The notes under the pieces are model-generated. The model made no database searches, was not told the origin of the DNA, and was given only the letters and a program-made list of their open reading frames with translations. From NCBI RefSeq assembly GCF_046105845.1, contig NZ_CP151004.1: a stretch of DNA of 64,000 nucleotides; one strand, given 5' to 3'. The position numbers and the translations under genes are program-made. Origin of the DNA: Escherichia coli. GTDB taxonomy: Bacteria > Pseudomonadota > Gammaproteobacteria > Enterobacterales > Enterobacteriaceae. Below are positions 10,427 through 51,119 of this stretch, piece by piece (the stretch's first letter is position 1; each line of letters starts with the position of its first letter).

Positions 10427-11287
10427 TTAAGATGCCTTTCTAATCAACCGATGCCCCTCATTCATCATCAGGATTTTGCTATACACATCTTCCTCGACGG
10501 CGTTTTTTGCTGATGCCATCACTCGTGCCAGATTCGCCTCGTTGTGATTATTCACATACGCTTTGCCGACGGCGGTGATAAACGCTTTGCGCAGATCGCT
10601 GGCGATATTTACTTTAGCGACGTGATAATTAACAAAGCTGCGCAATATCTCCGGGGCGATACCGGAGCCGCCGTGAATAACCAACGGCACCGGACAGACT
10701 TCGGCAATGCGCTTCAGCAAGGGGATATCGATCCGCGGTATATCGTCCAGACCATGAACGTTACCAATAGAAACTGCCAGCATGTCGCAACCGGTGCGCT
10801 CGACAAAGGTCTTCACCTTTTCCGGTTCCGTTTTGCAATCGGCTTCGCTGACGTGATCATCTTCTTTGCCGAGAATCGCCCCCAGCTCCGCTTCAACCGG
10901 TACGCCATAGGATTTACAGAAATCGACAGCTTCCTGGGTGAAAGCGATATTCTCTTCAAAAGAGAATGCGGCACCGTCAATCATGACCGAGGTAAAGCCC
11001 GCGCGCACCGCCTGTTTAACATCCTCCTGAGTTTTCCCGTGATCCAGATGAAGACTGACCGGAACATCCATTTTATCGGCGTGACGTTTCACGATTTCAT
11101 AAATGTAATCGTATCCCGAGAGTTGTGCATTGGTGGGCGCAATCTGAATGAAGTTGGGTAATCCTGAACGCTCAATGGCGTTTAAAATTGAAATCGTCGT
11201 CTCCAGATTGGTGGTATTAAACGCGCCCGCTAATACCCGTTTTTCCTGAATGCGGTCGAGCAGTATCCGTCCATTAACTAATGGCAT
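10427..11287 (-). CDS. Class II ketose-bisphosphate aldolase (FbaA/GatY/KbaY family)
   Basis: 286-aa ORF with LLDRIQEKRVLAGAFN, LHLDHG and VIHGGSG motifs typical of class II zinc aldolases; GAGG SD upstream. Confidence 0.8.
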   Translation of the reverse strand: MPLVNGRILLDRIQEKRVLAGAFNTTNLETTISILNAIERSGLPNFIQIAPTNAQLSGYDYIYEIVKRHADKMDVPVSLHLDHGKTQEDVKQAVRAGFTSVMIDGAAFSFEENIAFTQEAVDFCKSYGVPVEAELGAILGKEDDHVSEADCKTEPEKVKTFVERTGCDMLAVSIGNVHGLDDIPRIDIPLLKRIAEVCPVPLVIHGGSGIAPEILRSFVNYHVAKVNIASDLRKAFITAVGKAYVNNHNEANLARVMASAKNAVEEDVYSKILMMNEGHRLIRKAS

Positions 11288-11317
11288 TTGAAAACCTCAT
11301 CTTTTAATATCAGTTAA

Positions 11318-11587
11318 TTATTCAGCTTCACCGAAGCGGTCACGAAATAAGGCGGTGAGAGTTTGTATTGCCTCATTTTCATCATCGCCTTCGCAGCGTA
11401 TTTCCACCGTTTTACCGCCTTTTATTCCGGCGCGCATAATATTCATCATGCTGGTGGCATTAATATCATTACCCTCATAATGCAGCGTCACTTTACAGCT
11501 AAACTTTTTGGCGGCTTTTACCAGACAAGCCGCCGGACGTGCATGCAGGCCAGTACTGTTTCTGACCTCCACGGTTTTACTCAACAT
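11318..11587 (-). CDS. HPr-family phosphocarrier protein (operon-encoded HPr paralog)
   Basis: 89-aa ORF with GLHARPA (His15) and a Ser at position 46; GGAGG SD upstream; overlaps the 3' end of the kinase gene by 11 bp. Confidence 0.75.
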   Translation of the reverse strand: MLSKTVEVRNSTGLHARPAACLVKAAKKFSCKVTLHYEGNDINATSMMNIMRAGIKGGKTVEIRCEGDDENEAIQTLTALFRDRFGEAE

Positions 11588-13085
11588 AGTGCTCCTCCCG
11601 ATGGTGTAATGGCATCACGCCTTCTTGCTGTAATTTCAACTGATACCAGCTTTTCCATTTGTGCTGATAACGCTGTAATTGATGGTATCTCGCCCGATTC
11701 GGTAACAAACGTTGGGCTATGGTAACTTGCGGCGGTGGAATATCCGGTGCGGCAGTTAATAATGCTCCGACAGAAACCGCCTCGTTAAATGCAATTGCCT
11801 CAACCGGACGCTGTAAAATATCCGCCTTTAATTGCAGCCAAAGGGGATTATGGGTTGCCGGGCCGATTACTTTTAACGCGCTGGTGCCAGGCACATTAAA
11901 ACAGGCGAAGCAGTTGGCAAATTCCATGGTTAATCCCAGTGAGACGCTGGCAATTAACATGTCAATATTTAACGTATCGCTAAGCCCATAAAATAATCCA
12001 CGGGTATGGCGATTTTTATAGGGCGAACCCGAACCGCGAAGATGTGGAATAAAGAGGGGAATGTCATCGAGCGACCAGTTCCCCGCCAGGTAATCCGCAT
12101 GTCCGCGAGTAAGTGATGCGGCGATCTCCTCATCGGTTAGCCGGAACGTGTTACGCAGCCACTCCAGAGCGAAACCGCCCACGGGCAGCGACGCAAACAG
12201 GGTGAACTGGTTTGCAAGCGAATAACAGCCGTTTGCCAGCTTGTCACGTTTGGCCTGTTCATCCAGCGTCGGTTGTGTATCCAGTTGCAGAATGCCTTCT
12301 GTGGTCCCCGTCGAGTTAAGGATATCGCCCGGCATCATCTGCAACGCCCGTGCACCCACCATATGGTCATGTCCGGCCAGCGTCACGCTGACCGGTTGCG
12401 AGAACCCAAGCGTTTTGCAGAGCGACTCGCTGACCCATCCGGCGTGTTCGCCTGGCTGCACCAATGGCGCAAATGCTGAACAGGGAACGTGTAACAACGC
12501 CGCCGCTTTCGCTGACCATTCGCCTTTGCGCACGTCCAGACACAGCGTGCGGCTGGCTAAGGTGATATCCGTGCGCTGTTCGCCGGTCAGCCGCCAGAGC
12601 AGTACTTCCGGCGCATGTAGCCAACGCAGGCCGCGGCGATTACGCAGTGGGTAATGTTCCAGCAACCAACGCATTTTGAAGGCAGAGTAATTGCTGTGCA
12701 GCGGTAACCCGCAAATGTCATAAAGTGCCGCACTGTCTGCCTCGCTAAGTGTAGCCAGATACTCTTCACCGCGACGGTCATACCAGGCCAGCATTGGCGT
12801 CAGGATCTCGCCATGCTCGTCAAGGAACACGCCTGACTCGCCAAAACTGGCAATGCTTATCCGCCTGACTGGCAGCGGCGAAGCGGCGTTCAGTTGCGCT
12901 ATCGCCTGGCGGACCTCCTGCCAGAGGGCGTCGATATCGAAATCGACATCGCCCTGTGGGGAGATCTGTTTTGCCGTCACGAATTTATGCGCGCCCAACG
13001 TCGTTGCGTCCAGGCAGGAAAAGCAGGTGACTTTGCAATTGGTGGTGCCAATATCGATAACGATAGCTGCGCTGTTATCAGGCAT
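11577..13085 (-). CDS. FGGY-family carbohydrate kinase
   Basis: 502-aa ORF with N-terminal AIVIDIGTTNCKV (FGGY phosphate-1 motif) and two-domain actin-like fold size; overlaps the EIIC stop by 8 bp. Confidence 0.8.
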   Translation of the reverse strand: MPDNSAAIVIDIGTTNCKVTCFSCLDATTLGAHKFVTAKQISPQGDVDFDIDALWQEVRQAIAQLNAASPLPVRRISIASFGESGVFLDEHGEILTPMLAWYDRRGEEYLATLSEADSAALYDICGLPLHSNYSAFKMRWLLEHYPLRNRRGLRWLHAPEVLLWRLTGEQRTDITLASRTLCLDVRKGEWSAKAAALLHVPCSAFAPLVQPGEHAGWVSESLCKTLGFSQPVSVTLAGHDHMVGARALQMMPGDILNSTGTTEGILQLDTQPTLDEQAKRDKLANGCYSLANQFTLFASLPVGGFALEWLRNTFRLTDEEIAASLTRGHADYLAGNWSLDDIPLFIPHLRGSGSPYKNRHTRGLFYGLSDTLNIDMLIASVSLGLTMEFANCFACFNVPGTSALKVIGPATHNPLWLQLKADILQRPVEAIAFNEAVSVGALLTAAPDIPPPQVTIAQRLLPNRARYHQLQRYQHKWKSWYQLKLQQEGVMPLHHREEHYVE

Positions 13086-14436
13086 AAACCGTGCTCCGCG
13101 TCATTCGGAAAATACCATACAGTACCAGGGCGATAACCGGCACCAGACCAATGGCGATGAGATTGCCGTTGAAGATTTCCAGCAGCCAGAAGCGGAACGG
13201 GTTACCGCCATCAAGGAAACTGGAGACCTGGCCGCTGGAGCCTTCGGCAAATTTGAAATTAACGTCTTTCGCCATTCCGGTAATAAACGGCGCGATTTTA
13301 GTCGCAATCCACAGATCGGCAATAATCACCGGGATCGCCGCCAGAACGGTGCGGAAAATGTTGCCACGGCTGGCTAAAGCAATCATCGACGCCATTACCG
13401 CCAGGTTGGCAAGGTCGCCAAGCGGCAGGACTTCATTACCCGGAAGGACAAACGCGATAAAGACCGAGATTGGCGTCAGCAGCAGGGCGGTGGAGATAAT
13501 CGCCGGGTTACCTACGGCAACGGCGATATCCAGGCCGATATAGAGATCGTCACGGTCAGGGTATTTGGCATTGAGATACTTTTTAATGGCTTCAGACAGC
13601 GGTAATAAACCTTCCATCAGGATGCGTACCATGCGTGGCAGGATGAACATCACACCGCCAATGCTGATGCCAAGCAGCAAGACTTTTTTGAAATCGTATC
13701 CGGCAATTACGCCGAGCAGAATGCCCAGAATAGTACCAACCATCATCGGTTCGCCGAATATGCCAAACTTTTTCTGTACGGTTTCCGGATCGATATGAAT
13801 ACGATTGAGGCCGGGGATATGGTCGATGATTTTGTCGACCAGCAGACCGACCGGAAAGAACACCACCGAAGAGAGCGTCGGCAATGAGATCCCTTCCAGG
13901 CCAAAGTATTTTTGTACCAGTGGCGCAGACCAGTCGGCGAGTTTAAGTACTACCACCGCAGCAATCGCCGCCGCCAGTAAACCAAAAAACAGGCTGCCGG
14001 TGCTGTAATAAACCAGCGTACCAGCAAGGGCAAAATGCCAGTAGTTCCACATATCTACATCAACGGTGCGGGTTTTATTTAACGCCAGCATCGCCACGTT
14101 AATCAGAATAGTCAGGGGAATAACAAACGGGGCAATTGGCGAACCCCATGTAATAGCGGAAAGCGGCGGCCAGCCTAAATCCACCACCGGTAAATTAATT
14201 CCGGTGCGTTCAACCATCGCCTGGGCCGCTGGCCCGACATTGCTGGTAAGAATATCGAAAATGGCATAAATACCGACAAAACCAATGCCGACCGTTAATG
14301 ACGAACGTAAGGCTTTAGCGGGTTTTACTTTAAAACAGAGAGCAAGAATAAATAACACCAACGGCAACATTACCGTGGGACCAAATCCCAATATATATTG
14401 CACTATATTATAGAGGGTATGCGCGATATCGTTCAT
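13078..14436 (-). CDS. PTS galactitol-family EIIC permease
   Basis: Track ORF 13078..14466 (GTG); start refined to ATG 14436 with AAGAGG SD; multi-TM protein colinear with GatC (LGPTVMLP, GIGFVGI, GEP motifs). Confidence 0.85.
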   Translation of the reverse strand: MNDIAHTLYNIVQYILGFGPTVMLPLVLFILALCFKVKPAKALRSSLTVGIGFVGIYAIFDILTSNVGPAAQAMVERTGINLPVVDLGWPPLSAITWGSPIAPFVIPLTILINVAMLALNKTRTVDVDMWNYWHFALAGTLVYYSTGSLFFGLLAAAIAAVVVLKLADWSAPLVQKYFGLEGISLPTLSSVVFFPVGLLVDKIIDHIPGLNRIHIDPETVQKKFGIFGEPMMVGTILGILLGVIAGYDFKKVLLLGISIGGVMFILPRMVRILMEGLLPLSEAIKKYLNAKYPDRDDLYIGLDIAVAVGNPAIISTALLLTPISVFIAFVLPGNEVLPLGDLANLAVMASMIALASRGNIFRTVLAAIPVIIADLWIATKIAPFITGMAKDVNFKFAEGSSGQVSSFLDGGNPFRFWLLEIFNGNLIAIGLVPVIALVLYGIFRMTRSTVYA

Positions 14437-14450
14437 AATAAACCTCTTTT

Positions 14451-14483
14451 TCAGGCGAGAGCGCACCTCGCGTTAGCGCCTGA
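14451..14483 (-). other. Intra-operon stem-loop between PTS EIIB and EIIC genes
   Basis: TCAGGCG...CGCCTGA 7-bp stem enclosing a GC-rich sub-hairpin, in the 76-bp EIIB-EIIC spacer. Confidence 0.35.
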
Positions 14484-14512
14484 TGGAGTGGGTTGAAATT
14501 AATTATTATTAA

Positions 14513-14794
14513 TTACTTTTTAAGGATCGAAACAATTTGCGCCAGTACTTTCTCTTCGCCAATACCGGTAATAATCGGCAAGCCGTTAACCACCGGGACG
14601 TCGAGTTCATAAGGCACTTTAGTCGTTGAGACTACCAGTGCTACGCCATCAGTATTTCCAGGTAAAGAGGCAACGTTGGTTTGGGAATAATTGACGTTAA
14701 GACCGTGCTCTTTACAATATTCCATGACTTTTTCTGTTACCGCCGTGGATGTGGCAATACCCGTGGCGCAGACAAATAAAATGGTTTGACTCAT
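14513..14794 (-). CDS. PTS galactitol-family EIIB component
   Basis: 93-aa ORF with ILFVCATGIATS (phosphoryl-Cys loop) resembling GatB. Confidence 0.8.
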   Translation of the reverse strand: MSQTILFVCATGIATSTAVTEKVMEYCKEHGLNVNYSQTNVASLPGNTDGVALVVSTTKVPYELDVPVVNGLPIITGIGEEKVLAQIVSILKK

Positions 14795-15264
14795 ATTTCA
14801 CCTCGTTCTTTCATTTTGTTTAAGATTACTGTGTGTATTTCTGTTGTTTCCATCGTAAGCAGGGCGCGCATAAAGGGCGTATCCTGAATCATCTCCATAA
14901 TCCAGCCCAGGGCATTTAATTGTTTATTACTTTCGCTTAAGGCGAGCAAAAAAATCACCCTGACAGGTACGGGGTCAGGATCGCCGCCCATATCGGCAAA
15001 CTCTACCGGTTCCGGCAGGATGCCGACGGCAATTGCATTGTGCCTGACATGTTTATGGTCCGTGTGCGGAATGGCGACACACGGTGGTTCGGTAGGCAGC
15101 CCCGTTGGGTACGTCGCCTCACGTTTCAGTACGTGATCGGCAAAATCAGGGACCACCAGCTCGGCGGCAACCAACGGTTGCGCTAACTGACGGATGATCT
15201 GTTCAACGCTTAACCCTGCCGGAAGTCGTTGAATATAATTTTCCTGAAACTGTATGCCTTGCAT
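14791..15264 (-). CDS. PTS EIIA component (mannitol/fructose/galactitol type fold)
   Basis: 157-aa ORF with CVAIPHTDHKH active-site His region resembling GatA; 4-bp overlap with the EIIB start. Confidence 0.8.
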   Translation of the reverse strand: MQGIQFQENYIQRLPAGLSVEQIIRQLAQPLVAAELVVPDFADHVLKREATYPTGLPTEPPCVAIPHTDHKHVRHNAIAVGILPEPVEFADMGGDPDPVPVRVIFLLALSESNKQLNALGWIMEMIQDTPFMRALLTMETTEIHTVILNKMKERGEI

Positions 15265-15288
15265 TTTATTCCTCTTAAAAAAGTGTAC

Positions 15289-16035
15289 TTAACTCACTTC
15301 CCGCCGTTGCAGCACGGTGCCCAGATAATATTTATTTCCTTTTAACCAGACGTTGCCAAACTCAACGGGTAACTCTCGGGAGAAAAAGACTAACTGCTCC
15401 AGATGCAAAACGGGTGCATCTTCACTGATATCTAAAAAATGACCGCGTTCATTACCAATTAATCGCGCGGCATAGCGACTTTCAGAGTAACGAATTTTTC
15501 TTTGCGACAAACTTTCTATTGTTGGAAATAAATTGTGTTGATTAAAATCGATTTCCACGATGCCGGGACATAGCTCAATATTGATACGGTTCTCTATCAG
15601 CATCGCTTTTTCATCACCAATTGAACGTAACCGCTCAAGGTAAAGAATATCCTGACCGGGCGTTATTCTTAATTTCTCTGCCACATAACGATTAGCCGGT
15701 TCAATCCGTGACGTAATAACTTCAGTGGTAAAGTGTATTTTCTGGCTTTCCAGCGATTCCGCGAATGACAATAATCCTTCACCTAACGGATATGCCACGT
15801 TCTCTTTTTTGACAAATGTTCCCTTCCCCTGGACCTGAATCAACACGCCTTCTTTTACCAGTTGGGCGACCGCTTTTTTAACGGTTCCCCGACTCACTTC
15901 CAGCATATCCATAATCTGGTATTCCGAAGGAATGCGATCGTCTTCCACCAGATCCCCGGTATAAATACTTTCTCTTATCCACTCCACCACTTGTTGATAG
16001 AGCGGTATTTGTGACGACTTACTTAATGATTTCAT
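15289..16035 (-). CDS. GntR/HutC-family transcriptional regulator (HTH + UTRA effector domain)
   Basis: Track ORF 15289..16044 (GTG); start refined to ATG 16035 (AGGTG upstream); N-terminal wHTH (IPSEYQIMDMLEVSRGTVKKAVAQLVKEGVL) and C-terminal UTRA-like domain. Confidence 0.8.
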   Translation of the reverse strand: MKSLSKSSQIPLYQQVVEWIRESIYTGDLVEDDRIPSEYQIMDMLEVSRGTVKKAVAQLVKEGVLIQVQGKGTFVKKENVAYPLGEGLLSFAESLESQKIHFTTEVITSRIEPANRYVAEKLRITPGQDILYLERLRSIGDEKAMLIENRINIELCPGIVEIDFNQHNLFPTIESLSQRKIRYSESRYAARLIGNERGHFLDISEDAPVLHLEQLVFFSRELPVEFGNVWLKGNKYYLGTVLQRREVS

Positions 16036-16058
16036 GGCGCGCACCTGAACATTTACAG

Positions 16059-16072
16059 TTGTCTATGGACAA
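16059..16072. promoter_or_regulatory. Palindrome TTGTC-TATG-GACAA upstream of the island GntR/HutC regulator gene; candidate operator
   Basis: Perfect 5-bp inverted arms 24 bp upstream of the regulator ATG, followed by a third TGGACAA half-site at 16076-16082. Confidence 0.4.
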
Positions 16073-16233
16073 TCATGGACAACTTCAAGCGTATAGTAGG
16101 TGAACGGGAGAAAAAGAGGATCGAAGCGTCTCACATTTTGAGGGACCAAATCGTGATCAAAAAAATGTGACGTGAGTCGATATTTGTCAGAAGTTTACTG
16201 CGCCGTAAGGAAATAACGGCGCGTTGGTAGGTG

Positions 16234-19037
<2,804 letters not shown>

Positions 19038-19041
<4 letters not shown>

Positions 19042-19982
19042 GCGTGCGCTCCTTCATGACGACGAATGCGCGGGTCCAGCGCGGCGTTGAGTAAATCAAC
19101 AATCAAATTACAGACGACAAAAACCACCACCATCATCAGCGTAAAGCACTGGATCACCGGATAGTCACGGTTAAAAATCGCCGACACCGCATAGCGCCCG
19201 ACGCCCGGCCAGGCAAAGATGTTTTCGATAATCATCGTCCCGCCAATCAGTTCGCCAATGTGCATCCCCACGGCGGTGATCATCGGCAGCGAGGCATTGC
19301 GCAGAATATGGCGACGTTCGGTCTGTTTGTCGTTCAGGCCGCGTAGCCGCGCCCAGGTGACGTGACGCTGACCGGCGACGTCCAGCATACTGGCGCGCAG
19401 CAGCCGCGCGTTAATCGCCAGCGACATAAAGGCAATGGAAACCGCAGGCAAAATGATGTGCTGCCAGCCGCCGTAGCCCATCGCGGGTAGCCATTGCAGA
19501 TACACCGAAAACGCCATCACCAGTAAAAACGCCAGCCAGAAGTTAGGCATCGACACGCCAAGAAACGCGATGAAACGTACGGCGAAATCCGGCAGACGAT
19601 CGCGATGGCGCGCCGCCCAGATACCGAGCGGTACGGAAGTGAGCAGAATTAACACCAGCGCGGCACCTGCAAGTTCCAGCGTGGCGGGCAGGAAGTTCAG
19701 CATATCGTCCAGCACCGGGCGTTGGCTGGCGAATGAGATACCAAAGTCAAGATGCAGCGCCTTCCACAACCAGGTGCCGTACTGGACGTACAGCGGCTGA
19801 TCCAGCCCGAGCATGGTGCGGGTAGAAGCCAGCATCTCCGGCGTCGGCGGCAGGTTAGATAAACGCAGATAATCGAGCGCCGGGTCGCCGGTGCCGAGGC
19901 GCAGCATCAGAAAAATGATCACCGAGGCGGCGAGCACCATCGGGATCAGCAGCAGAAAGCGGCGTAATACGTAACGCAACAT
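19038..19982 (-). CDS. nikB: Nickel ABC transporter permease NikB
   Basis: 314-aa Opp/Dpp-type permease starting [14 protein letters not shown]. Confidence 0.93.
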
Positions 19983-21556
19983 TAAGGTTTCACCGGTTTA
20001 ATCTGTTCGAACGGAATTTCGGTGGCGATCGGCGCGTAGGGGATATTACCCAGCTCCGGTTTTGATACCACCATCATCGAGATGTAGCTGATAGGCAGAT
20101 AAACCGCCTCGTCATGCAGACGGGTCAGAATGTCGCGATACAGCGCCTGACGTTGCGTTTCGTCATGGGTTGCCAGCACTTCGCCGATCTCTTTATCAAT
20201 CAGCGGCTTGTCGGCTAATCCTTGCTGTGCCTGGAAATCAGCGTGCGACGGTACGCGCATTGAACTCAGGAAGGCGTGTGGATCGTATGGCGCGCCCCAG
20301 GTGCGATGGAAAATCATGCCAAAACGACCGTCGCGCTGACGAGCATAGATACTGCTCTCTTCTTCGCCAACCAGTGAGACATCTGCGCCAATCTGGCGCA
20401 TATCAGCCTGAATGATTTCCGCCATCGATTTGCTTAACGCATCGGTGCCGATGAACGACAGTTCAATGCGCAGCGGCTGACCATTTTTCTCGCGGATGTC
20501 TTTGCCCGCAGGAAGCGTCCAACCGGCTTTTTCCAGCAACGCTTTCGCTTTCTGCGGATCGTACTGGCGCGGTTTCAGGCCGAGGTTGGCGTAGGGCACA
20601 GAAGGGGCAAACAGGGTGTCGGCGACCTGCTGGGTGCCATACAACGCGTTATCAATCAGCGATTTTTTGTTTACCGCGTAATTAAGAGCTTCACGTACTG
20701 CCAGCTCGTTGGTAGGGGCTTTGGCGGTGTTGAGTGCCAGCATCACGGTTTCGATCGGCTGTGACAGTTGGGTGTGGTAAGCCGGGTTCTGGCTAAAGCG
20801 GGCGAAGGTATCGAGCGGTAATAACCCTTCGTTTCCGTACAGCAGGTCGATATCGCCAGTTTCAAACGCTACCGCGCGGGTAGTCGGGTCCGGGATCACG
20901 TTAAAAGTGATCTTCTTAATCGCCGGCTTCTCGCCCCAGTAGTTTTCGTTACGGACGAAGACATCGTACTGATTCAGTTTCGATTCCTGTAAAACCCACG
21001 GCCCGGTGCCAATTGGCGCTTTAATCCCGTTCATGGTTTCATGGTTTTTAAACTGCGAGGGGGCGATAAAGCGGAAAGGGCGCGGCAGGGCCAGTTCTTG
21101 CAGGAAAGGATAGTAGGCGCTTTTCAGGGTGATTTGCAGCTCTGTTTTACTGAGTGCTTTGACATCAACAATCTGGTTTGCCAGCTCCAGCCAGGCGTGA
21201 CGTTGACGGTTATCGAGTACTGCGCGGAAGTTTTCTGCCGCCGCCTCGGCATCGAACGGTTCACCGTTGGAGAATTTCACGTCATCACGCAGGGTGAAGG
21301 TCCAGGTTTTACCATCTTCTGAATGAGTCCAGCTTTTTGCCAGCCACGGGATCACCGAACCGTCTGCCTGATATTTCACCAATGGTTCATAAACCATGCT
21401 CTGGGCGAACATCTGGTTAGGTGTGTAAAGGTGCGGGTTTAGTGGCCCGACATTCACCGGCCAGGCGGTGGTGATTTCATCTGGTGCAGCGGCATGGACG
21501 ATAAAAGACGCACAAGCCAGCAGCACAAATAGAGTGCGGCGGAGTGTGGAGAGCAT
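19982..21556 (-). CDS. nikA: Periplasmic nickel-binding protein NikA
   Basis: 524-aa family-5 solute-binding protein with signal peptide; preceded by a NikR operator. Confidence 0.95.
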
Positions 21557-21593
21557 GGTAACCCCAATGGATTAAAATAGATGGCGGAAATAA

Positions 21594-21621
21594 GTATGAC
21601 GATTTTAAGTATTCGTCATAC
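21594..21621. promoter_or_regulatory. NikR operator (GTATGA-N16-TCATAC) in the nikA promoter
   Basis: Exact GTATGA-16 nt-TCATAC dyad 38 bp upstream of the nikA start codon. Confidence 0.85.
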
Positions 21622-21666
21622 TGATAACCTGTTCTGGATCAAAAGATGGGCAGTCGGGTGGGCGGA

Positions 21667-22254
21667 TCAGTTAACTGAATCGATCCATTGCACACTGTCG
21701 GCGGAGAGCGTAAAGGGGGTGGGAGTGCAGATCGCCAGGCTTAAATTATCAAGCTGGCAATGGCTGACCGACAGTGATGAGTGATAGGTGCTGTCTACGC
21801 TGACGATTTGCCATGCGCTGCCGCCACGCTGTTTAACGATGGCTTCTTTGCGCGTCCAGATGCGCCAGAACATTTCCAGTTGCTGATCAGGATGCACGGC
21901 GTCCATCTCGGCATGTTCCCCAAGGCTGAATACGGCGTTCGCCAGCCAGCGCCAGTTGGCGCGCGGGCGAATCACTTCGATATCGCAGCCGACTTCGCCT
22001 TCATCGCTCAACAGCAGGGCGATATCGTCACCGCTATGGCTTAAGTTGAACCATAGCGGCGTTTCCGGCGCGAATGCCGGTTTGCCTTGTTCGCCATAGA
22101 TGATCTCCGGTAGCGGGGAAAGCGTGTGCGAAAGCAATGCACGCCCCGCCAGCCAGCGTTCGCGTCGTGGACCTTGCGGTGCTTGCTCGCGTAAACCCGG
22201 TGGCAGAGGAGCTGCGCTTAAGGTCGAAACTTTCCCCAGAACTATCCGATACAT
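21667..22254 (-). CDS. acpT: 4'-phosphopantetheinyl transferase AcpT
   Basis: 195-aa ORF, PPTase family; position between nikA and yhhT. Confidence 0.9.
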   Translation of the reverse strand: MYRIVLGKVSTLSAAPLPPGLREQAPQGPRRERWLAGRALLSHTLSPLPEIIYGEQGKPAFAPETPLWFNLSHSGDDIALLLSDEGEVGCDIEVIRPRANWRWLANAVFSLGEHAEMDAVHPDQQLEMFWRIWTRKEAIVKQRGGSAWQIVSVDSTYHSSLSVSHCQLDNLSLAICTPTPFTLSADSVQWIDSVN

Positions 22255-22308: not shown

Positions 22309-23358
22309 TCATCCCGGTAACCGACTTTTCGGTCTGCCTGGCCCCAGTAAAATCGCCAGTTTGCTACCGCCTTTCGTAGTTTCCATCCAGATTTTACACA
22401 CGCTGGTTAATGGCACCGAAAGTAGCATCCCTACCGGGCCGAGCAGCCATCCCCAAATTAACAATGAAAGAAATACCACCATGGTGGACATCCCCAGGCG
22501 ATGGCCCATCATCCGTGGTTCTAAAATATTGCCGATGACCATATGGACCACTAAAAACAATGCGCCGACCAGAATACATTCGTAAATACCATTAAACAGC
22601 AGCACCTGAACCATTGGCGGTACGGCGGAAATTACCGCGCCGATATTGGGCACGTAGTTGAGCAAAAACGCCAGTACTGCCCACATCAGCGCAAACTGTA
22701 CGCCCATTAGCGCCAGCCCCAGCCAGACGATGACACCTGTCCATAAACTGAGTAGCGTCTTCAATGCAAGATAGTGCGAAACGCCTTTAAGTGCGCGGTG
22801 TAATCCTGCGATGTGAATCTGTGGGTTATTCAGCGCAAAACGCATTTTGTAAGGGACGTGGCGCACTTCAAACAGCATGAAAACTACGGTCATCACCAGC
22901 AAAAGCACGCTCGCCATTGCCCCGGAAAGCCCGGTCATTAGCGCCGTGGTGAAGGTAACCACTTTTTCCGAGTCCATCCGCTGCAGCATTCGCTCCGGCG
23001 ACATATGTAAATTAAGAAAAGGCAACATCTCCTGCAATTTAAAAAGTTTGCGCGTCAGCTCCTTATTAAACTTCGGCAGCATAGAGATAAATTCGTTAAA
23101 CGATGCCGCCAGTACGCCGACCAGCGCAGTTAGTGCGATCAGCATCACCACCACCACAATCGTAATGGCAACGGGGCGTTGTACTCCCCGACGAATAAAC
23201 CAGGTGACGAGCGGGTTGAGGACGATGGCAAAAAACAGCGCCAGTAACAGCTGCACAATGATATCTGCCGCTGCGTGAATGCCCGCGAGGATCACTACCA
23301 GCGAGGCCAGCTTGAGCAGAATGTGCATGCCCGTTTTATCGGGTTGAGGGGTTTCCAT
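22309..23358 (-). CDS. yhhT: AI-2E family transporter YhhT (putative permease)
   Basis: Track ORF 22309..23439; start refined to ATG 23358 (METPQPDKTGMHILLKL...); multi-TM protein. Confidence 0.88.
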   Translation of the reverse strand: METPQPDKTGMHILLKLASLVVILAGIHAAADIIVQLLLALFFAIVLNPLVTWFIRRGVQRPVAITIVVVVMLIALTALVGVLAASFNEFISMLPKFNKELTRKLFKLQEMLPFLNLHMSPERMLQRMDSEKVVTFTTALMTGLSGAMASVLLLVMTVVFMLFEVRHVPYKMRFALNNPQIHIAGLHRALKGVSHYLALKTLLSLWTGVIVWLGLALMGVQFALMWAVLAFLLNYVPNIGAVISAVPPMVQVLLFNGIYECILVGALFLVVHMVIGNILEPRMMGHRLGMSTMVVFLSLLIWGWLLGPVGMLLSVPLTSVCKIWMETTKGGSKLAILLGPGRPKSRLPG

Positions 23359-23489
23359 TGGGGCTTCCTTGTGACTTTTTGTATTAAGTGTAGCGGGAGT
23401 CACGCCAGCAATATTCTGATTCTTAATGCTGATTTTCACGTCAGCACGTGGTAAAAATGAAACACTGTTGTAAAAATGTGGTGATCCTC

Positions 23490-24707
23490 ATGCCCGAACC
23501 CGTAGCCGAACCTGCGCTAAACGGATTGCGCCTGAATTTGCGCATTGTCTCCATTGTCATGTTTAACTTCGCCAGCTACCTCACCATCGGGTTGCCGCTC
23601 GCTGTATTACCGGGCTATGTCCATGATGTGATGGGCTTTAGCGCTTTCTGGGCAGGATTGGTTATCAGCCTGCAATATTTCGCCACCTTGCTGAGCCGCC
23701 CTCATGCCGGACGTTACGCCGATTTGCTGGGACCCAAAAAGATTGTCGTCTTCGGTTTATGCGGCTGCTTTTTGAGCGGTCTGGGATATCTGACGGCAGG
23801 ATTAACCGCCAGTCTGCCCGTCATCAGCCTGTTATTACTTTGCCTGGGACGCGTCATCCTTGGGATTGGGCAAAGTTTTGCCGGAACGGGATCGACCCTG
23901 TGGGGCGTTGGCGTGGTTGGCTCGCTGCATATCGGGCGGGTGATTTCGTGGAACGGCATTGTCACTTACGGGGCGATGGCGATGGGTGCGCCGTTAGGTG
24001 TCGTGTTTTATCACTGGGGCGGCTTGCAGGCGTTAGCGTTAATCATTATGGGCGTGGCGCTGGTGGCCATTTTGTTGGCGATCCCGCGTCCGACGGTAAA
24101 AGCCAGTAAAGGCAAACCGCTGCCGTTTCGCGCGGTGCTTGGGCGCGTCTGGCTGTACGGTATGGCGCTGGCACTGGCTTCCGCCGGATTTGGCGTCATC
24201 GCCACCTTTATCACGCTGTTTTATGACGCTAAAGGTTGGGACGGTGCGGCTTTCGCGTTGACGCTGTTTAGCTGTGCGTTTGTCGGTACGCGTTTGTTAT
24301 TCCCTAATGGTATTAACCGTATCGGCGGCTTAAACGTGGCGATGATTTGCTTTAGCGTTGAGATAATCGGCCTGCTACTGGTTGGCGTGGCGACTATGCC
24401 GTGGATGGCGAAAATCGGCGTCTTACTGGCGGGGGCAGGGTTTTCGCTGGTGTTCCCGGCATTGGGTGTAGTGGCGGTAAAAGCGGTTCCGCAGCAAAAT
24501 CAGGGGGCGGCGCTGGCAACTTACACCGTATTTATGGATTTATCGCTTGGCGTGACCGGACCACTGGCTGGGCTGGTGATGAGCTGGGCGGGCGTACCGG
24601 TGATTTATCTGGCGGCGGCGGGACTGGTCGCAATCGCGTTATTACTGACGTGGCGATTAAAAAAACGGCCTCCGGAACACGTCCCTGAGGCCGCCTCATC
24701 ATCTTAA
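23490..24707 (+). CDS. yhhS: MFS transporter YhhS
   Basis: Track ORF 23448..24707; start refined to ATG 23490 (MPEPVAEPALNGLRL...); 12-TM MFS-like protein. Confidence 0.88.
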   Translation: MPEPVAEPALNGLRLNLRIVSIVMFNFASYLTIGLPLAVLPGYVHDVMGFSAFWAGLVISLQYFATLLSRPHAGRYADLLGPKKIVVFGLCGCFLSGLGYLTAGLTASLPVISLLLLCLGRVILGIGQSFAGTGSTLWGVGVVGSLHIGRVISWNGIVTYGAMAMGAPLGVVFYHWGGLQALALIIMGVALVAILLAIPRPTVKASKGKPLPFRAVLGRVWLYGMALALASAGFGVIATFITLFYDAKGWDGAAFALTLFSCAFVGTRLLFPNGINRIGGLNVAMICFSVEIIGLLLVGVATMPWMAKIGVLLAGAGFSLVFPALGVVAVKAVPQQNQGAALATYTVFMDLSLGVTGPLAGLVMSWAGVPVIYLAAAGLVAIALLLTWRLKKRPPEHVPEAASSS

Positions 24708-50908: not shown

Positions 50909-50998
50909 GCGATCAGGAAGACCCTCGCGGAGAACCTGAAAGCACGACATTGCTCACATTGCTTCCAGTATTACTTAGCCAGCCGGGTGCTGGCTTTT
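50909..50998 (+). ncRNA. ryhB: Fur-regulated iron-sparing small RNA RyhB
   Basis: GCGATCAGGAAGACCCTCGCGGAGAACCTGAAAGCACGACATTGCTCACATTGCTTCCAGTATTACTTAGCCAGCCGGGTGCTGGCTTTT matches RyhB; ends in a GC hairpin plus U-tract; Fur-box-like AT-rich sequence immediately upstream. Confidence 0.92.
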
Positions 50999-51119
50999 TT
51001 TTGATCTTTCGTTTTCAATTTATCCACGGGAAGTGCTTGTGTTCGTTATGCGCACTCCAGTAGGAACCACGTCCGCTTTGCGCTAAGGTGTAAATAATCA
51101 CCTTAAAAAGGACGAAATC

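Follow-up and report, generated by a model that had tools for sequence, protein, structure and literature searches.

A K-12-identical NikR operator upstream of nikABCDE in an Escherichia coli genome

The closest described system is the nikABCDE promoter of Escherichia coli K-12, for which an operator recognised by NikR, GTATGA-N16-TCATAC, was reportedly described by Chivers and Sauer in 2000, and for which a crystal complex (PDB entry 2HZV) is said to have been presented by Schreiter et al. in 2006. 2HZV is the complex of NikR with its operator, and the K-12 operator reads GTATGACGAATACTTAAAATCGTCATAC. A review gives this palindrome in the nikABCDE promoter as the sequence bound by Ni(II)-NikR with nanomolar affinity (PMC7055735), and GTATGA-N16-TCATAC is also given as the Ni(II)-NikR binding site in a second source, PMC4486848. 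In the complex the β-strands of NikR are inserted into the major groove at both half-sites (PMC4486848; PMC2875016). Genome-wide ChIP of FNR in K-12 found that nikABCDE is directly activated by FNR from one site at −40.5 (PMC3688515). Even divergent NikR signals are inverted repeats of 27-28 bp, and the nickel sensor that binds them is a ribbon-helix-helix tetramer (PMC545781; PMC2875016), and the enterobacterial consensus has been quoted as GTATGAT-N13/14-ATCATAC (PMC545781). The δ-proteobacterial signal, GTGTTAC-N13/14-GTAACAC, differs in its half-sites from the site considered here, which is also not of the type found with Helicobacter pylori NikR, a pleiotropic regulator that has a weak consensus and can activate.

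We analysed a 64-kb stretch of E. coli DNA (the window), in which a preliminary description had noted a canonical NikR operator upstream of nikA. A pattern search confirmed the exact dyad and its spacing. GTATGA-N16-TCATAC occurs only once in the window, at 21594-21621, in comparison to 0.003 exact sites predicted from base composition, and it was found in none of 100 dinucleotide-preserving shuffles of the window. The plus strand of the site reads GTATGACGATTTTAAGTATTCGTCATAC and the gene (minus) strand GTATGACGAATACTTAAAATCGTCATAC, with the two 6-bp half-sites, GTATGA and TCATAC, in dyad symmetry on either side of a 16-bp spacer; the whole measures 28 bp and the half-sites lie two helical turns apart. 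The symmetry extends beyond the core, the arms reaching 9 bp (AGTATGACG/CGTCATACT, 21593-21622). A relaxed search of the window that allowed up to three mismatches returned 17 matches against 17.9 expected. Since these relaxed matches are no commoner than chance, extra NikR sites were rejected and we regard 21594-21621 as the only real NikR site in the window. Its placement upstream of nikA holds once the minus-strand orientation of the operon is considered, the operator lying 38-65 bp before the start codon of nikA within the 110-bp acpT-nikA intergenic region (21557-21666).

The genes that such an operator would serve are all present (Table 1). The nikABCDE-nikR operon lies on the minus strand in the gene order of annotated E. 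coli chromosomes. The nikA product matches the NCBIfam equivalog model TIGR02294 (nickel_nikA) with 839.7 bits against a cut-off of 393, in agreement with the syntenic annotation. The genes nikB to nikE (16641-19982) encode the permeases and ATPases of the ABC transporter; their open reading frames have the same lengths as the annotated E. coli genes and their products are 96-100% identical to Escherichia homologs in tblastn searches. All five genes, nikA to nikE, are full length, as is nikR. The cognate repressor, with its ribbon-helix-helix domain and His3Cys nickel site, is encoded by nikR, as judged by the equivalog models and by an identity of 133/133 residues with the PDB chains 1Q5V, 2HZA, 2HZV and 3OD2. 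Hence the earlier statement that the nickel-responsive control region is intact stands at the level of sequence, with respect both to the 133 identical residues of NikR and to the full-length nikA-E.

Table 1. Features of the nik locus and its neighbours, in coordinates of the window.
Feature	Position	Strand	Remarks
NikR operator core	21594..21621	.	unique exact match; 28/28 identical to K-12; invariant in 8 E. coli alleles
FNR box TTGATCCAGAACAG	21629..21642	-	consensus TTGAT-N4-ATCAA; left half perfect, right half 3/5
-10 hexamer TAAAAT, in operator spacer (inferred)	21602..21607	-	from FNR site at -40.5 and box position
Transcription start, A in promoter-proximal TCATAC (inferred)	~21595	-	FNR-box centre + 40.5 bp
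Likely nikA ribosome-binding site TGGGGT	21561..21566	-	5-10 nt upstream of ATG
nikA	19982-21556	-	periplasmic nickel-binding protein, 524 aa; first operon gene; ATG 21556-21554
nikB	19038-19982	-	314 aa
nikC	18208-19041	-	277 aa
nikD	17444-18208	-	254 aa
nikE	16641-17447	-	268 aa
nikR	16234-16635	-	nickel-responsive ribbon-helix-helix repressor, 133 aa; NCBIfam NF002815 and TIGR02793 equivalogs
acpT	21667-22254	-	core gene upstream of nikA; stop codon 21667-21669
yhhT	22309-23439	-	
yhhS	23448-24707	+	

Alignment with E. coli K-12 DH10B showed that 28 of the 28 operator bases are identical, the spacer included, and the description of the site as canonical is thereby borne out, this being the K-12 operator that reviews cite (PMC7055735, PMC4486848). 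The locus also resembles K-12 in the position of the operator between acpT and nikA, in its NikR (133/133) and in the place of the FNR box. Within the 110 bp between acpT and nikA only two bases differ from K-12, and both lie upstream of the operator: an A to T change at 21643, just 5′ of the FNR box, and another at 21626, around −32. Since both NikR and the operator match the K-12 and crystallised forms, the two partners in the window are those that have been studied biochemically and structurally.

With a threshold of 95% identity, the intergenic region was recovered from 5425 of the 5426 complete E. coli genomes. We aligned eight alleles taken across the identity ranking of the 5425 genomes, including the most divergent one. 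The operator was invariant in all eight, and the 12 variable positions (12/12) fell outside it. One rival reading, that the site is a chance palindrome without function, a relic in a strain that has lost its nickel control, can be weighed against these data and appears next to impossible. It is opposed by the 0.003 sites expected and by the empty shuffles, by the complete match to K-12 and by an operator that does not vary across E. coli alleles while its flanks do; it is further opposed by a NikR that is 100% identical to the crystallised protein and by transporter genes that are all intact.

The two A to T alleles, at 21643 and 21626, are natural and are common to strains N3 and AST215, and the promoter allele of the window is found at 99% identity or more in only 87 of the 5425 genomes. 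The window shares 98-99% identity with E. coli genomes and 92-96% with other Escherichia species. In the regions compared, the closest complete RefSeq E. coli genomes reach around 99% (at best 99.0% across 701 bp and 98.8% across 7.2 kb). Some of the nearest strains were isolated from soil/drain sediment and from other sediment, which suggests that the window comes from a sparsely sampled lineage. Its divergence is natural and mostly synonymous, with proteins such as NikB and NikR up to 100% identical. An artificial or otherwise odd divergence of the window was considered and rejected on the same grounds, namely the mostly synonymous changes and the identity of 98-99% to E. coli genomes.

The FNR box, TTGATCCAGAACAG, lies 20 nt upstream of the extended dyad, and together with the K-12 ChIP site at −40.5 it fits a class II FNR promoter, in which the box is near −41.5. 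Counting 40.5 bp from the centre of the box, taken between 21636 and 21635, would place the transcription start at the A of the promoter-proximal TCATAC and the −10 hexamer TAAAAT within the operator spacer. On these coordinates, which follow from the published FNR position, the operator would span about −26 to +2 and so cover both the −10 element and the start; it would thus overlap the core promoter of the nickel-uptake operon. A simple σ70 promoter scan of 21400-21900 called no promoter. This is expected of an activator-dependent (class II) promoter without a −35 element, for which such a scan is uninformative.

Taken together, the dyad is almost certainly the NikR operator of the nikABCDE-nikR promoter, repressing nickel uptake when Ni(II) is sufficient. 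In this model, sufficient cytoplasmic Ni(II) would load the NikR tetramer at its C-terminal sites, and the tetramer would take up a closed cis conformation. Its two ribbon-helix-helix domains would then enter the major groove at both GTATGA half-sites, two helical turns apart. Because the operator appears to span the −10 element and the start, bound NikR would exclude RNA polymerase and promoter occlusion would switch off nickel import, in keeping with the accepted model. With little nickel available the operator would be free, and under anaerobiosis FNR at the TTGATCCAGAACAG box (−40.5) would activate nik transcription. For nickel-dependent binding, for the structure of the complex and for activation by FNR this model draws on the literature, which concerns the same K-12 operator sequence. 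The occlusion mechanism depends on the exact −10, on the start and on where the operator lies with respect to +1, all of which are deduced here from the position of the FNR box.

We considered whether another regulator might use the same DNA, either as well as NikR or in its place, and NarL is the candidate. The NarL heptamer consensus is TACYYMT. Two similar heptamers on the minus strand, TACTTAA in the spacer (21605-21611) and TACTTAT around +1 (21590-21596), overlap the operator and the inferred start. Furthermore, nikA is experimentally NarL-regulated, with the NarL site undefined (PMC2718512, citing Rowe et al. 2005), and repression of nikA by NarL when nitrate is present has been reported. 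Against this, the heptamer is short and degenerate, and by our own estimate around 0.1 matches are expected by chance in the intergenic region. A NarL site would, in addition, add to control by NikR rather than replace NikR binding. We regard a role of the operator DNA as a target of NarL as unlikely.

In order to follow the operator beyond E. coli, we searched 100,044 species, each represented by a single genome, for the extended dyad AGTATGAC-N14-GTCATACT. The scan returned 61 loci against around 70 expected by chance. Because the search pattern itself fixes the half-sites, these are the same in all matches, and only the conservation of position, spacer and FNR box counts as independent evidence. 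By this measure the enterobacterial matches are uniform. All seven, from E. albertii, E. whittamii, two Escherichia sp., an E. coli record, a Klebsiella MAG and Kosakonia arachidis, directly precede a nikA homolog that is followed by the remaining genes of the operon. No match came from the E. coli type-strain representative, E. fergusonii, E. marmotae or E. ruysiae, which is not evidence that the site is absent there.

The Klebsiella MAG and Kosakonia arachidis have NikA proteins 72% and 81% identical to that of the window. Their NikR boxes have the form AGTATGAC-N14-GTCATACT directly upstream of nikA, as in the window, and TTGATCCAG is invariant across the three genera, exactly 20 nt upstream of the dyad, with TA(A/G)AAT retained in the spacer. 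In contrast, the spacer as a whole differs from that of the window at 2-6 positions, the upstream neighbour is not acpT, and the flanks further upstream and downstream of around +6 are not alignable. This pattern is a phylogenetic footprint of the FNR box and of the operator/−10 unit. Thus the operator keeps its orthologous position where the flanks have diverged, both in the eight E. coli alleles and in the seven enterobacterial species. The window site departs from the enterobacterial consensus quoted in PMC545781 at position 7, which is C/G, whereas the consensus has T/A. Our searches and alignments show directly that the site is present and unique in the window, that it is identical to the K-12 operator and its repressor to the crystallised protein, that the transporter genes are intact, and that position and architecture are conserved across genera.

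Two of the Escherichia matches, Escherichia sp. MOD1-EC7003 (L048:4024-4202) and E. sp. E1V33 (L044:3217-3717), have a nikA leader that is interrupted between an intact operator and the ribosome-binding site. One of the two leaders carries an ERIC/IRU-like element of around 112 bp inserted at TA, and the other around 430 bp of tandem REP/BIME-like repeats, after which the right arm of the operator recurs in degenerate form. The end of the ERIC-like element, GAAGTATGACGAGTAT, resembles a NikR half-site. The nikA leader of the window is without an ERIC-like or REP/BIME-like insertion.

In eight alphaproteobacterial genomes, namely five Tardiphaga, one Bradyrhizobium and two MAGs (loci L013, L024, L026, L047, L053, L057, L059 and L061), a nikR homolog starts 15-60 bp from the same dyad. 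The products of these nikR homologs are 50-56% identical to E. coli NikR, and in all eight genomes the gene on the other side of the dyad is divergent and encodes a TonB-dependent receptor with Plug and β-barrel domains. In nine further Bradyrhizobium genomes (L014, L016, L019, L021, L034, L041, L049, L058 and L060) the dyad, with a conserved spacer, stands directly before a similar receptor gene. The boxes in Tardiphaga and Bradyrhizobium share with the window the 8-bp arms and the 14-bp gap, the box lying next to a nikR homolog. Unlike the window, they have no nikABCDE behind them, their spacers are unrelated and they are without an FNR box. This implies the same half-site specificity in these NikR proteins, at 50-56% identity, with an outer-membrane receptor as the target rather than NikABCDE, a finding that is probably covered by earlier comparative-genomics work.

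Around 35 of the 61 matches were unrelated palindromes or chance matches and were left out of the counts of NikR sites; they include Marinobacter hairpins and archaeal and Firmicutes MAG loci without a nearby nik gene. These unrelated matches are an internal negative control for the scan. An actinobacterial Nostocoides MAG contains a 30-bp palindrome three times (L062, L063 and L064), two copies being perfect (AGTATGACGGAGAACGTTCTCCGTCATACT) and the third having one mismatch in the spacer. It is a dispersed repeat that is unrelated to nik genes and shares the NikR arms by chance.

A further reading is that the dyad acts mainly as an RNA hairpin that terminates or attenuates read-through from the co-oriented acpT gene. 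The minus-strand RNA does fold, with a 10-bp stem, a 10-nt loop and a free energy of −15.6 kcal/mol (z = −4.7 in comparison to shuffles). The stop codon of acpT (21667-21669) lies 45 nt before the dyad, and the hairpin is followed by UUAUUUCC. However, any perfect DNA palindrome yields such an RNA fold, and the features of a Rho-independent acpT terminator, a G+C-rich stem, a short loop and an immediate U tract, were not found here: the loop is long (10 nt), the stem is A/U-rich and the U tract, UUAUUUCC, is weak and interrupted. A terminator scan of 21400-21900 found no site. The comparative data weigh in the same direction. Klebsiella and Kosakonia have unrelated sequence upstream, but the distances from the dyad to the FNR box and to nikA are retained, and in the alphaproteobacteria it lies between divergently transcribed genes and cannot be a terminator there. 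We therefore rejected an acpT terminator as the main function, there being no call in the scan and the dyad travelling with nikA or nikR, and consider such a role extremely unlikely. A hairpin or terminator role is at most a secondary effect of the operator sequence. A second role, in which the hairpin formed in acpT read-through RNA would insulate the nik promoter from transcription arriving from upstream, seems to us very unlikely, as does the additional idea that the two A to T polymorphisms of the lineage would retune the anaerobic induction of nickel uptake; both are suggested by the sequence only.

Having assigned the dyad to NikR, we turn to its surroundings, which the preliminary description had called adjacent to an island border. 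This is correct for the operon and nikR, the border being at around 16235, and does not hold for the operator, which is 5.36 kb away beside acpT. Position 16236, at a distance of 2 bp from the nikR stop codon, is where homology with the Rhs-type strain AST215 sets in, and the homology continues unbroken at 97.9% identity to at least 30000. The operator is therefore 5.36 kb inside a conserved block, directly next to the core gene acpT.

Beyond the border, between yhhJ and nikR, lies a variable segment (9675-16233) that encodes a HicA/HicB toxin-antitoxin pair, a class II aldolase, HPr, an FGGY sugar kinase, a galactitol-type PTS (IIC/IIB/IIA) and a GntR regulator. With coverage of at least 80%, the segment occurs in 1635 of the 5426 complete E. 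coli genomes (around 30%). Other, K-12-like strains have an Rhs element in its place, and downstream of nikR the window thus differs from them in carrying the PTS/aldolase/kinase/GntR segment. The G+C content of the segment is 48.6%, in comparison to 57.2% for the nik operon. Elsewhere in the window, the gene for the small RNA RyhB (50938-51002, plus strand; Rfam RF00057, 83.1 bits) gave the only Rfam match at gathering level, and is an unremarkable part of the core genome. A search for tRNA genes in the window was negative.

Collectively, the site at 21594-21621 is the textbook E. coli NikR operator, unchanged and already known, and the value of the finding is for annotation only, with no open question advanced by it. 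As read from its sequence, the strain keeps a complete and unaltered nickel switch, comprising operator, FNR box, repressor and transporter, beside a variable segment. Since nickel import feeds the [NiFe]-hydrogenases under anaerobiosis and the switch is intact, we predict that nickel uptake in this strain would be regulated normally, as in K-12.
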